Positions 42,385 to 64,000 of a stretch of 64,000 nucleotides of DNA are shown here, one piece after another (positions within the stretch are counted from its first letter, which is position 1; each line of letters starts with the position of its first letter). Below the pieces are notes generated by a model. The model was not told where the DNA came from and did not search any database. It was given only the letters and a program-made list of their open reading frames with translations. Source of the DNA: Neocallimastix sp. 'constans' (taxonomy: Eukaryota); NCBI GenBank assembly GCA_050613775.1, contig JBODTK010000014.1, forward strand, positions 1,178,001 to 1,242,000. Reading direction: 5' to 3'. The translations under genes and the position numbers were made by a program.

Positions 42385-42595
42385 ATAAAAAAAATGTATA
42401 AATAGATGAGAAAATTGTATTTTAGAAAAATAATCTTGAAAAATATAATCTTATTAAAAAAATTAAATTATATTTAGTTTTAATTGAATAATTTTTATTA
42501 AATAAATAAATAAAATATTCTAAAAAAGATATATTTTAATTTTTAATTTTTTTATTTTAGGGTTTATTTCTATATTTTTATTGATCTGTCACGAA

Positions 42596-43383
42596 TGGTA
42601 TGGTTCATATAGTTTTAGGAATATAATAATAATTAACACAAATAATAAAATTACAATAAAAAAAATAAATTGTTTTAAAATCAATATTTATTTATTTAAA
42701 TTTATAAAAGAAAAATAATAATATAACTATTTATTTAATAAAAGTAAGTTATTGATTATATTTTATTTCACTAAAAATTACATGTATTTATATTTTTTTA
42801 TCAAATTAAAATTTGTAAAGACTAACTATTTTTTTAATAAACTAATTACTAATTATTTTAATAAATAAAACATTTAAATTGAAATTGAATTATTATTTTA
42901 GTTAATAATATTATTTTTATAAATAGTAGTTATATATTATTGAATTATTAATTATTTAATAATAGTTTAATATTAATATATATAAAATAAAAATAAAGAG
43001 ATTATACAGAATATTTTAATTGTGGTTTAGTTAAATTTAGTAATTAAAAATAAATTTAAATTGATAACGAAAATTTTAATAAATAATTAAATAGATTTGA
43101 TTATTTCCAATATAACATATTACAAAAGAAATATAATATTAATATATTAAGTGGGCAAGGACAATATTCTTGGCTAAAGATTTTTAATATATTATAATGG
43201 AATCGGATCGATAATTCAAAAAGGTATTATAAGCTAATTGGTGATTTATTAACTTAAGATTTCTATTTAGTAATATTTGAAGAATATTGGAAAGTTCCAA
43301 TTATATAGAATAGAATAATCTATAAGGTTAGAATAATTTATATTATTCTAGCACAATTAGTATTATTTGTTCATTCTGTATTA
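42596..43383 (-). mobile_element. Solo LTR A2 (array 2, unit 1; target CGAA)
   Basis: Copy of A1; CGAA on the left, CGA on the right. Confidence 0.9.
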
Positions 43384-43386
43384 CGA

Positions 43387-44091
43387 TGTAAGTGTTGACT
43401 AATTAATTAGTCACACTTAACCAAATATAATATAAATATTATATTTATTTTTATTATTAATTAAGATTTAAATAATTTTACAATAAAATTAACACTTAAT
43501 ATTATTTAATATACTATAATTTTAATAATCGTTATTAAATAATAAAATAAAAATAATTATTAATTGATAAAATTAATTTTTTAACTAATTAATAATTAAT
43601 TATTATGAAATATAAACAATATCTTTAATTAATAACCAATTTCTATTTAATATAAATAATTAATCATTTGATTTATCATTAACAATAATACGTGATTAAT
43701 GATATTAAAACATTTAATATTAATATAATTAATATTAAATTAATATAAAATTAATTAATAATTATAAACTTAAAACATCATAATAAATAATTTCATAAAA
43801 TATTGGTTAATTGCTAATATTAAATTATATTAAATTATATTAAATAATAAATAATTAATTTATTTTATCTTTCAGGTTTTTTCTCATAATCTTTTTCCTG
43901 AAAGAATAACTTTTAAGATTATGAACAAAAAAATTATAAATAATCTTAATCTTGATTTTTTCTATAAAATAAAAATCAAGAGTTATTATTTAGAAAATAA
44001 TATATAATAAAATTTCTTAATAAACTCGAAATATTTTTTAACAATTATTGTTATTTTTATAAAAGTTAAGTATTAATTTTGTGTTATTACA
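43387..44091 (+). mobile_element. Solo LTR F (5-bp TSD TACGA)
   Basis: TGTAA...TTACA; TACGA at 43382-43386 and 44092-44096. Confidence 0.85.
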
Positions 44092-44097
44092 TACGAA

Positions 44098-45509
44098 TGA
44101 TACGGGCTGGGGTTGAAACACTAAGATATTCAAAACAAAAAAATAAATATTAACACATAACTATAAAAATAAATTTGGAAACAAGAAAAAAATTAAATTT
44201 TAAAATATATTTTATTTAAATTTAAAATTAAAATTATTTGCTCCCCAGTATTAAAAAGAAAGAAATTTATTCTTCTTTTTATACTTTTATTTTAATACAT
44301 TTTATTTATTATTAATATATTCTTTATAAAAAAACTATTATAACTATTTTATTTTAATTTTTAACTATTATTTTAAATTATTTTTTTTAAAAAAAATAAC
44401 ATTTATTAAATTAAAATATAAAAATTAATTTAGAGATTGTATCACGAAGGGCATTCCGGGCGGTAGCTTCTTCTTGATATTGTTTTCAGAGAAAGAATTA
44501 TACAGAATTGATATTTTCTGTATTTTAGATCTTTTTTATTATTGAAATTCTTCTGTATTTTAGTTCATTTTTATTTTAATAAAGATTTAATTTATTTTTG
44601 ATTTTTGATTTATTTTTAGTTTATTTCAAAGGTTTAGAAAATATTATACAGAAACTTATAATTCTGTATTTTATATCAAATATTTATTGAAATATGTTTT
44701 TATTATTCTTAATATAAAAATAAGAATTAGTAATGATTTAAATATTATATAATTTTTAATAAGAATATTTAGTAATAATTTTTATTATATTTAATATTAA
44801 TAAAATATTTAATAATTATTTTTATTAGATTTGATATTAATAAAAGATTTTAATAAGAATATTTAATAATTATTTTTATTAGATTTGATATTAATAAAAG
44901 AAATTTATAAGAATATTTAATAATAATTTTTATTATATTTGATATTAATAAAAGATTTTAATAAGAATATTTAATAATAATTTTTATTATATTTAATATT
45001 AATAAAAGAAATTTATAAGAATATTTAATAATAATTTTTGTTATATTTAATATTAATTAAAGATTTTTATTAGAATATTTAATAATTATTTTTATTAGAT
45101 TTGATATTAATAAAAGATTTTAATAAGAATATTTAGTAATAATTTTTATTATATTTAATATTAATAAAAGATTTTTATTAGAATATTTAGTAATAATTTT
45201 TATTATATTTAATATTAATAAAAGAAATTTATAAGAATATATAATAATAATTTTTATTAGATTTGATATTAATAAAAGAACATTTAATAATAAATTTTAT
45301 TATATTTAATATTAATAAAAGAAATTAATAAGAATATTTAATAATAATTTTTGTTATATTTAATATTAATAAAAGAAATTTATAAGAATATTTAATAATA
45401 ATTTTAATTAGATTTAATAAAAGACTTTAATAATAAGATTTAATAATAGTTTTATTATTATTAAGAGTATTTAATAGGAAATACAAGGTATTTAGTGACA
45501 CCCGTATCA
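44098..45509 (-). mobile_element. LTR-like unit H1 (TSD CGAA) with an expanded minisatellite of about 54 bp
   Basis: 9-bp inverted termini TGATACGGG/CCCGTATCA; right end resembles the G2 LTR; minisatellite at about 44750-45460. Confidence 0.9.
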
Positions 45510-45513
45510 CGAA

Positions 45514-61100: not shown

Positions 61101-61131
<31 letters not shown>

Positions 61132-61923
61132 TTATTATTAATTTTATTATTTATTATTATTGTTTTTTTTTTTATTTTTATTATTGTTTTGTGTTATTTT
61201 ATTTTTTTATTTAGAAGATGTTATTTTCTTCAGATATTTATATTCGATTTCATTTTTAAAGTTTAATATCTTGGAAATGAAAAAGAATTTAAGTATTTAA
61301 TTAAAAGAATTATTAATTCATTCTTAATTAAATGTTAAATAAAATTATTAATAATATGTTTAATATAAATTCCATAAAGGAATAAAAAATTATTATTTAA
61401 AAAGATATAATAAATATTTTAATTAAATGATATCTGGAATAAATAATTAAAAAGTTTTTAATAAAATTTTTAATTAAAAGTTTACAAAAATATTAATTGA
61501 ATTTTATAAAAGATAATAAATTATTTAATCATAATTTATTTTAAGTTTAATAAAAATTAATATTAATTTATAGTGTTATTGAAAGTTAATAATAATTAAT
61601 TTGATAAAAATATAATAAAAATATAAAATAATTTTAATATAGATTCAATAAAGAATTTGTTAATATAAATTTTTGAAGAGTTTATATGTATTTTAATATT
61701 AATTTAATTAAGATTCAGTAATGATTTTATAAAAAATATTTTTATAAAGATTTTAATTAATATTATAATAATTTTAATTAATTTATAATATTATATAATA
61801 AAATTTTTAATTTAATTCAGGGAAGAATATAAGAAAGTTCCATTAGTAAAGAATATAAACTTAATTATGGTTAAGTTATGTTTAAACATAACAAAATAAG
61901 TAATTTATAGTCATTCTTTACCA
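60874..61923 (-). mobile_element. Solo LTR J (TSD GAAC)
   Basis: TGTTATGGTTC...CATTCTTTACCA flanked by GAAC. Confidence 0.88.
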
Positions 61924-61927
61924 GAAC

Positions 61928-62888
61928 TGTTAAGGTTCGGAGAGAGGGAAAAATAAAAATAAGTATTAATATAAACAATAAAAAATAAACAAACAAGAAA
62001 ATTAATAAACAAAATAAATTTTTGTTTTATAAATCCTTTATTAAAATTTTTTTTTTAAAAATTACAATATTAAATTACAATATAAAAAATACAATTTTTT
62101 TACTGTTATTTATATTTTTTTTCTTAAAATAATAGAAATGGTAAAGCCATTTCTTTGTGTAATAAAAATTAATTATTAAATATTTTATATTAATTTTTTA
62201 TTATCAATAATTATTATTTAACTTATAATAAATAATACTCATATATTAATCTATTACTAATTATTTATTAACTAATCTACTTAATTATATATTTTAAAAG
62301 ACAATTTTTTTATTTTACAGAAGTTAATTCTGTGGTTTAGTAATATTTATTTAATCCTAAAGTTTAATTTTACTAAGTTTAGAAAAATAATATTTTTTAA
62401 TTATTAATATAAAATTTATAATCATTTCATCAAATTTATAATATAATATTTATAATAAAACATATAATAATAATATAACTATTTCCTTTTATGTTTAATC
62501 TTTTATTAGTAATCATTAATACAATTTTTTTAATTTGGAATTTTCCAAAGAAATAATTGATATTGATAAGTTTAATATTAATAAAAGAAATATTGATAAG
62601 ATTTTGATAAACTATAAAGAAAATTGATAAAATAAACTATATAATATTGATAAGGATTTTAATAATAATAAAATATAGATAAGAATAATAAAGGTAGCAT
62701 AGATAAGGAATTAATATTAAATACACTTTTAAATAGTATAATTTAATATGTACTAATTAGGAATATAGATTAATTTATTAGAATATAGAAAGTTCCAAAA
62801 GAATAAAGAATAAAATAATTTGTTTAAGGGTTAAATGAATCATTTAAGATGTATAACCAAAAGAACATTATTTGGGCATTCTTTATCA
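61928..62888 (-). mobile_element. Solo LTR K (target GAAC)
   Basis: TGTTAAGGTTC...CATTCTTTATCA; GAAC left, GAA right. Confidence 0.88.
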
Positions 62889-62891
62889 GAA

Positions 62892-63791
62892 TGTAAGAAA
62901 TTACTTATAAAATTAATTATAAATAATTTCTTAACTACAAATTAACATTAATTATTACTAATTAACATTAATTTGAGAAAATAAAATTAAATATAATTAA
63001 ATAAATATAAAATAATATAAATAAATAATTATACTTAACTTAAATATATGATAGAGTTTATTATAGAAAGTTTATAATAAACAATAACACAAAAGGAATA
63101 AAAGACACAAATATTTATAAAATATGTTTTATTAAAAGGGTTTTGTTTTATTAATTAATTATTTTATTTGAATTATTATTTATTATAAAAATTCTAAAAT
63201 AATAACTCTTGATTTCTCAAAGAGAACTCAAGAGAATCAAATATATATAAATTAATAATTAAATATTATTGGTTAAAATAAATACAATAATTTAATGTAT
63301 TAAATTAATGTATTAAATAAGAAAGATAGATAAATTTTATAATAAATTTATCTAAGTTTCTTACATTGCTCCCTTTACTTAATGAATTTGTATAAATTCA
63401 TTATTATATAGGAAGTAGTATATTTAAAATAAAAATTATAATTAACCAAAAAAAATATAAAATTAAATAATTTATTGAAAGTTTTGCTAACCTTAACTTT
63501 TTAACATCTAGAGAAAAGATTAGCGGAAAAACTCTAGACGAATCAATATTAAGTAAAACCAATTAACTTGGGAAAAACCTTAATATTGTTTTCTAAACTA
63601 ATATATAAATATAAGTGAATAAATAATTATAAAATTAAATAAAATAACTATAATTATTAAATGTATAAATAAAAATAAAGTTAAATAAAATGACTATATT
63701 ATTAAATGAATAAATAAATATTAAATTAAATAAATTATAATAACTAAGAAATGTAAATGAATTATTAATAAATTTATTTGTATTTCTTACA
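62892..63791 (-). mobile_element. LTR L, probably the 3' LTR of an element continuing past the window
   Basis: TGTAAGAAAT...ATTTCTTACA; followed by ttgctccttttc (minus-strand PPT GAAAAGGAGCAA) rather than a TSD. Confidence 0.8.
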
Positions 63792-64000
63792 TTGCTCCTT
63801 TTCATTTGAATTGTTCAATGAAAGAAGAACAATTTAAGAAATAATAAATTAAGAAATATTAAAAAGAAATAAAATTTAAATAAAATTAAAATAAATATTT
63901 AATTGCAATTTCAATTTAAAAAATTGAAATTTAAATTTTGAATTAAAATTTATTTTAAATAAATAATTAAATGAACAATAATTTATAAATTTATATTATA

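Follow-up and report, generated by a model that had tools for sequence, protein, structure and literature searches.

The Ty3 retrotransposon inserts 1–4 nt from RNA polymerase III (Pol III) transcription start sites via TFIIIB (PMC5911963), and duplicates 5 bp of its target site, the end of this target-site duplication (TSD) being at most 20 bp from the mature tRNA sequence (PMC6673722). The chromodomain-like part of its integrase contacts TFIIIB (10.1101/2021.07.27.453949). DGLT-A, described as lacking a chromodomain, has a mean insertion distance of 15 bp before the mature tRNA, and the gene it targets can also receive other tRNA-specific elements (PMC5006619); it contacts TFIIIC through its RNase H (PMC6101501). 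Here we describe a stack of 20 long terminal repeat (LTR) units of Ty3/gypsy type in the anaerobic gut fungus Neocallimastix sp. 'constans' (GenBank assembly GCA_050613775.1, contig JBODTK010000014.1, positions 1,178,001–1,242,000 of the forward strand). This 64,000-nucleotide stretch is called the window, and positions are counted from its first base. The stack covers 31 kb, from 32913 rightward to the window end. It is quite likely that a fixed-distance anchor of some kind lies to its right; that this anchor is a Pol III (tRNA) gene beyond the window, by analogy with Ty3 and DGLT-A, is the reading we favor, with less assurance.

Junctions were read from the assembled contig sequence alone. 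The original prediction described 13 LTR units stacked end to end in the right part, and each unit and spacer was reproduced exactly, in the order CGAA-A2-CGA-F-TACGAA-H1-CGAA-M-CGAA-O-CGAA-C'-ACGAAC-Q-GAAC-H2-GAAC-H3-GAAC-H4-GAAC-J-GAAC-K-GAA-L. Its statement that many diverged families are present also holds, as the 13 units form 10 families by BLAST. Six further units extend the stack to the left (A1-GCA-C1-CAGCAG-E-ACA-C2-CAACA-C3-CAACAG-K0-ACAG, 32913–41676), and an LTR-like unit, P, follows from 41693. The whole stack contains about 14 families, whose bodies have no mutual similarity. Termini are TG...CA in 17 of 20 units; A1 and A2 end in TA, and the right end of P is a predicted one. 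The TA ends of the A-family LTRs lie at 33703–33704 and 43382–43383, and the TSD copy of F shows that A2 ended in TA before F inserted.

Spacers were compared as TSDs of 4 bp for most units and of 5 bp for units with TGTAA...TTACA ends (F, C' and L among the right-hand 13). Across all 20 units, 14 TSDs are exact, K matches at its 3/3 visible bases, C1 and E have one mismatch each, A1 and P are unmatched, and L lacks a right copy within the window. Eleven of the exact TSDs belong to the right-hand 13 units, with the right copy of A2 reconstructed by taking F out; the other three are C2, C3 and K0 among the left six. Thus 15 of 19 testable units match, 2 match with one mismatch and 2 are unmatched, in line with the 4–6 bp TSDs of Ty3/gypsy elements. 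In this DNA the background frequency is 0.0011 for CGAA and likewise for GAAC, and the probability that two random 4-mers agree is 0.025. This excludes a chance origin of the spacers, which the original prediction had called implausible. Spacers differ between members of the same family (A1 GCA and A2 CGA; C2 ACA/CAACA and C' CGAA/ACGAAC), and where the LTR of F occurs in a full-length element, it follows a polypurine tract (PPT), not CGA. The spacers are therefore TSDs and not parts of the elements, as originally proposed. A shared-LTR tandem, with one LTR in common and no internal TSD, does not describe the locus, where each junction has a 3–6 nt TSD-derived spacer.

The further proposal of one CGAAC site for all spacers holds in part: the 13 right-hand spacers derive from CGAAC, but the left six units use (G/A)CAG. 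Over the stack the site sequence passes from (G/A)CAG to CGAA to GAAC, with three changes counted while stacking went on. These changes bear on the possibility that CGAAC is a sequence-specific hot spot struck repeatedly, as in double insertion at one target motif. All 13 right-hand spacers are compatible with such a hot spot, and a TSD is reported to stay in the junction after double insertion (10.1101/158386). Against it stand the different motif of the neighboring six units, the register shift from CGAA to GAAC, and insertion-free CGAA and GAAC elsewhere (each counted 20 times in 17,599 positions, a figure that includes the junction copies). We consider a CGAAC hot spot very unlikely.

The TSDs hold a common register on one side. 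Relative to the right spacer edge, 4-bp TSDs occupy −4 to −1 and 5-bp TSDs occupy −6 to −2 in 6/6 5-bp units (for L, judged from the left side only); relative to the left neighbor, offsets range from −2 to +2. Exceptions among the 20 units are one 1-nt slip and one 12-nt outlier, P. Position is thus fixed within a few bases of a one-sided landmark, as in Pol III-targeted gypsy elements. The right TSD copy of F, TACGA, carries the terminal TA of A2, so F inserted after A2 and to its right. Growth from a left anchor is ruled out by the same TSD. In the proposed mechanism, a host anchor to the right would place the integrases of both retroelement lineages described below at a fixed distance, and each newcomer would land between the preceding element and the anchor. 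LTR-LTR recombination would then shrink most elements to solo LTRs, leaving a stack that would read from oldest (left) to youngest (right). The LTRs of E, on the left, are identical at 486/494 aligned bases and are more diverged than those of the nested element G, on the right (99.86% identity across 704 bases), which agrees with this order.

Unit P (41693–42595, +) is LTR-like, reversed in orientation, and starts 16 nt past the end of K0, 12 nt off the register. The intervening bases (41677–41692, +; ACAG, 8 nt and AATA) may be a remnant of the original flank, the leader that stood before the anchor. P positions 9–22 match the U3 start of A at 13/14 bases and that of K at 11/14, and any U5 end at no more than 5/14. 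In body comparisons with the other units, P scores no higher than shuffles, apart from a marginal result with J (22 vs a shuffle maximum of 20). P would have inserted with the 4-bp TSD AATA, 12 nt to the right of the usual site. With a fixed right anchor, the next 4-bp target would fall on the 12th to 9th last bases of P. At these positions the U5 ends of A1, A2, Q, J and K read YGAA followed by CC (5/13 U5 ends in the window), as does a related full-length element on contig L010; E, K0, H1–4, M and O differ, as do the elements on contigs L006 and L007 (1/3 full-length elements with the motif). In K, whose U5 end CGAACCTTAACA serves as the model for the missing tip of P, this part reads CGAA-CCTTAACA; the last 8 bases are the inverted repeat of the first 8 of P, and the observed site is CGAA-C. 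Most likely, the right-hand 13 units sit inside the tip of P, and both arrays are one 20-unit stack, an argument from terminal motifs made post hoc. CGAAC would then probably belong to P, an earlier LTR, as its U5 tip, and would not be a host target sequence. The last bases of P and its right TSD are predicted beyond 64000. Splitting of P by later units would account for its unmatched TSD, for the rare site sequence and for the lack of an anchor beside K0; it would also imply that the left is old and the right is young. Two separate arrays with P as a recombined hybrid LTR were also considered and dropped, as a single stack with a split P needs no extra events. A degraded tRNA at the start of P was rejected.

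The stack units represent two Ty3/gypsy lineages. One, the 4-bp class by TSD length, is related to E; the other is the 5-bp class. The original prediction that several families share a near base-precise site is therefore refined to two lineages with two TSD classes. Direct ties to coding sequence concern E and F; A, H, M, O, Q, J, K, K0, P, C1–3, C' and L were assigned by terminal motifs, TSD length or partial LTR matches. Over its first 76/76 bases F is identical to the beginning of the 3' LTR in an intact gag-pol element on contig L104. This element has a single 1349-aa open reading frame (ORF) with capsid, protease, reverse transcriptase (RT), RNase H, integrase and SH3 domains, and the top PDB match of its integrase is Ty3 (E 4.6e-53). 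The ORF stops about 18 residues past the SH3 match, and the chromodomain-like module of Ty3 proper is absent; the integrases of E and G likewise end after an SH3-like part. For E, L006 holds a relative with 80% integrase identity and the same primer site, and the LTR ends of L006, L007, L009 and L010 are of the 4-bp-class type. Full-length LTR-element relatives of the units thus exist, which had been named as a check on the array. The pol order protease-RT-RNase H-integrase is complete in L104; G shows RT-RNase H-integrase, and E shows integrase, with no RT seen. Primer-binding sites (PBS) and PPTs were found in E and G. The integrases of the two lineages are 25% identical, and an RT-RNase H tree of 12 proteins, built without E because it has no RT, splits them at 100/100. 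The named homologs of the E integrase are from Orpinomyces and Neocallimastix gene sets (2 named among 80 matches). In E (35180–38533, −) the start of RT runs straight into integrase; RT and RNase H appear deleted, with both LTRs, PBS and PPT kept.

These relatives come from AT-rich gypsy contigs (L006–L012, L104, L185 and L186) in five prokaryotic genome bins, where they are most likely fungal contamination. DNA searches of the five bins gave mostly low-complexity matches, the useful ones being the E-clade coding matches and L104. The end-motif pattern had 11 matches in these bins and 7 for the reversed control. A metagenome scan for the H/E end pattern returned 5 loci of 39–47% GC, none matching the window, and these were judged to be chance. 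Viral-contig scans gave 0 matches in one set and no confirmed relatives in others, with 29 pattern matches that had no BLAST match to any unit. At least half of the sampled words of 60600–64000 occur in 18 of the 23 public runs listed, which speaks to the presence of the families and leaves the junctions unaddressed. Two contigs have unusual joins. At L011 1–90, an L-like LTR end is fused directly to the gag region of an E-type element, either as a non-junction insertion or as a chimeric contig. In L006, the terminal CA of the 3' LTR is followed immediately by TGTAAAAGG, which recurs further on and may mark the start of another LTR or belong to a tandem flank.

Two lineages with integrases this different at one site point to a shared host cue. 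The register alone cannot separate an anchor in the outside flank from the LTR end of the right neighbor. The U5 end of a resident 4-bp-class LTR, through integrase or a bound host protein, could therefore be what attracts newcomers; any junction could then be entered, and the order would not be chronological. Orientation by end motifs suits this idea, as 13/14 4-bp-class units have U3 rightward, with P reversed (5-bp units are 3 and 3), and fission yeast Sap1 is reported to bind within LTRs and beside retrotransposons (PMC7175516). However, the landing 12 nt inside the tip of P becomes a coincidence, and no stack is present at the U5 ends of the 5' LTR of E, of G, or of a G-like piece near 29180. 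The two lineages would also need to read diverse LTR ends identically. Attraction by U5 ends is rated improbable.

A Pol III gene is predicted as the right-hand anchor, beyond base 64000, because of the Ty3 and DGLT-A precedent. The 16-nt gap before P fits the insertion distances of both, and integrase or RNase H would be the putative partner of TFIIIB or TFIIIC. Several points weigh against this reading. No tRNA, 5S or U6 gene was detected in the window (ARAGORN 0; Rfam 0 at gathering score), and the anchor position would fall outside the 64 kb. The F-family ORF has no counterpart of the chromodomain-like part by which Ty3 touches TFIIIB (10.1101/2021.07.27.453949). Relatives occur off-site: H4 contains X and G, and the gag of an element on L011 contains an L-like LTR end. 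Others are dispersed without a stack, namely a G-like LTR piece at 29180–29689 (85% over 330 bases) and a C-like copy at 21110–21599 (76.5% over 507 bases). With off-site relatives in both classes, targeting is not universal in either lineage. The left TSD of A1 is unexplained, the P-split argument is post hoc and has terminal motifs as its basis, with a P body that has no clear relative, and the ties to coding sequence are limited to E and F. One weak Rfam match (E 4.9) lies within 40800–43500. ARAGORN with relaxed scores gave 32 and 137 scattered matches, treated as noise. No Pol III gene was found in 23 loci scanned from the five contaminated bins, and none of the 150 tRNA matches listed there, out of 157, is on a retroelement contig.

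The same stacking could also proceed from a right-hand anchor that is not a Pol III gene, such as a Sap1-like or centromeric protein site. The register and the P split fix only the side and distance of the anchor, and the window without a Pol III gene and the tail-less F-family integrase agree with such a site. However, near base-precise gypsy targeting concerns Pol III genes in the available text of two reviews (PMC5911963, PMC7175516), and DGLT-A is also tail-less yet is described as targeting tRNA genes via TFIIIC (PMC6101501). A non-Pol III anchor is unlikely, though of the alternatives to a Pol III gene it is the strongest.

H3 is a mosaic that agrees with H4 at the first 6 of its 25 informative sites and with H2 at the remaining 19. 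On this pattern it is a product of unequal crossover or a mis-join (assembly duplicate), not an independent insertion, which leaves no more than 12 independent insertions for the right-hand units. The 13 successive insertions of the original prediction are amended to that extent; all 13 units are present in the contig as described. A mis-join at H3 could suggest that assembly errors, or recombination only, produced the whole array. Elsewhere, however, about 14 families without body similarity are joined by TSDs in a two-class register; mis-assembly and unequal crossover need homology and therefore would not create such junctions. This explanation is the least credible of those considered. The proposed reduction to solo LTRs would apply to many units, with exceptions: E keeps two LTRs, and L adjoins a PPT. 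The solo LTR H4 is interrupted by the nested pair X and G (8.8 kb). L ends in TTCTTACA at 63791, next to a reverse-strand PPT, and is probably still joined to an element body that runs off the window; it has a second LTR-end/PPT junction at 63365. Bases 63297–63367 of L are 87% like the LTR end in L011.

Of the left-hand units, A1 (32913–33704, −) is a TG...TA solo LTR of the 4-bp class, 94.7% identical to A2, with an unmatched left TSD (TTCA vs GCAG). Its left flank (32905–32912) ends in TTTTTTCA; this and the right copy CAGCAG of C1 (34538–34543) together resemble the yeast Pol III start motif given as TCAACA (PMC6673722). C1 (33708–34537, +) is a 5-bp-class solo LTR whose TSD (TAGCA/CAGCA, one mismatch) overlaps the last 2 nt of A1. 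The gypsy element E (34544–39109, −) has LTRs at 34544–35141 and 38612–39109, gag-like and protease-like ORFs, an integrase, and the TSD GCAG/ACAG. C2 (39113–39905, −), a 5-bp-class solo LTR, is 95.1% identical to C' in opposite orientation, and its TSD CAACA overlaps the terminal CA of E. C3 (39911–40874, −; 5-bp class, TSD CAACA) and K0 (40881–41676, −; 4-bp class, TSD ACAG) are solo LTRs.

Right of P, the 4-bp-class solo LTR A2 (42596–43383, −) has the TSD CGAA and is followed by the 5-bp-class solo LTR F (43387–44091, +), whose TSD TACGA overlaps the end of A2. CGAA is also the TSD of H1 (44098–45509, −), a solo LTR with an internal tandem expansion, and of the LTR units M (45514–46954, −) and O (46959–47909, −). 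The solo LTR C' (47914–48695, +; 5-bp class) has the TSD ACGAA, which overlaps the last base of O, and is the first unit in the +1 register. GAAC is the TSD of the LTR unit Q (48702–49230, −), the solo LTR H2 (49235–50145, −), H4 (51072–60869, −) and the LTR unit J (60874–61923, −); it is also the left TSD of the LTR unit K (61928–62888, −). H3 lies at 50150–51067 (−), with its H4-like part on the left and its H2-like part on the right. L (62892–64000, −) is of the 5-bp class, with the left TSD CAGAA overlapping the CA of K, and is LTR-like to 63791. The LTR-like unit X (51981–60818, no strand assigned; TGTTAA...TTAACA, TSD ATTA) breaks the solo LTR H4. The full-length gypsy element G (52432–60609, +; TSD ATAT) is nested in X, and both are away from junctions. 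G has LTRs at 52432–53134 and 59907–60609, a PBS, gag at 53894–54976 and pol at 54961–59301.

GC content is 10–15% outside coding DNA, and the window consists mostly of retroelement remains. By motif inspection, a copia-type element has ORFs at 14922–19161 in the order gag, protease, integrase and RT, in three frames. Its 3' LTR runs from about 19578, where a PPT precedes TGTTAAAA. A further, more degraded copia-like fragment lies at about 4700–5500. Degraded gypsy-type coding remnants at 5900–9450 (−) and about 11850–12950 (+) are, by eye, one F/Ty3-like and one of E type. An ORF at 23344–24930 (−; 528 aa), which matches no Pfam entry and contains a repeat unit of about 130 aa, is possibly a host gene or part of one. 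A MITE-like element at 29718–30273, directly after the G-like LTR piece, is bounded by terminal inverted repeats, and its AT-rich body is self-complementary (71% self match). A (TAAAA)n microsatellite of about 330 bases is present at 22500–22830.

If the stack is confirmed, two distant integrase lineages of anaerobic gut fungi would converge on one site within a base, and one of them, without the module of Ty3, would provide a natural comparison for the evolution of position-specific integration. About 14 retrotransposon families would be ordered in time at one locus, a possible marker of strain history. A precise, repeatedly tolerated landing site would also be a candidate safe harbor for engineering biomass-degrading gut fungi. 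In the literature searched, which included few subscription journals, there was no account of multi-family LTR stacks this deep, as the original prediction had supposed, or of tRNA targeting in gut fungi.

CRISPR and integron arrays grow by polar addition at one end and have a short duplicated sequence between units. The original prediction drew this analogy, and it stands for the layout. The stack units, in contrast, insert by their own integrases and carry integrase-type TSDs; no dedicated host integrase or recombinase is among the window ORFs, and neither a dedicated recombination site nor any use of the record was found. The likeness is architectural only. A bolder proposal is that the stack is a polar, base-precise trap kept and used by the host: a host landmark would attract both gypsy lineages, the LTRs would stay in their order of arrival, and transcripts or small RNAs of the stack would silence matching families as a eukaryotic counterpart of leader-end CRISPR acquisition. 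Its polarity and precision have support, and the host use is hypothetical; we give this proposal very little credence.

Plant tandem LTR retrotransposons also have LTRs in series (PMC11899658). As described there, they share an LTR, have no internal TSD and arise by one insertion and recombination, whereas nearly each unit here has its own TSD. Drosophila double-insertion transposable element dimers (McGurk and Barbash; 10.1101/158386) and R1 arrays have in common with the stack a TSD in the junction and growth by unequal exchange, as may apply to H3. In the account available, each tandem consists of one family of non-LTR or DNA elements at a target motif, whereas the stack has mostly different LTR families and a changing target. 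The closest likeness is to Ty3/sigma solo LTRs of S. cerevisiae, and also to Tj1, Tca8/beta and Tyl3/Tyl6, with which the stack shares Ty3/gypsy elements, a near base-precise site and solo LTRs. Ty3 itself has in common the 5-bp TSD of the C/F/L class, with inserts both ways, and is the best PDB match of the F-family integrase. Unlike Ty3, the stack has about 14 families from two lineages, is 20 units deep, is nearly uni-directional in its 4-bp class and has an F-family integrase without the chromodomain-like tail; its Pol III gene is a predicted one. The insertion distance of DGLT-A in Dictyostelium fits the 16-nt gap between K0 and P. It inserts within a 13–33 bp window, compared with ±1 nt here, and the available text of its reports describes no stack of such depth. 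The locus would thus work like Ty3 and DGLT-A, and the stack is an unusually deep form of known position-specific integration.

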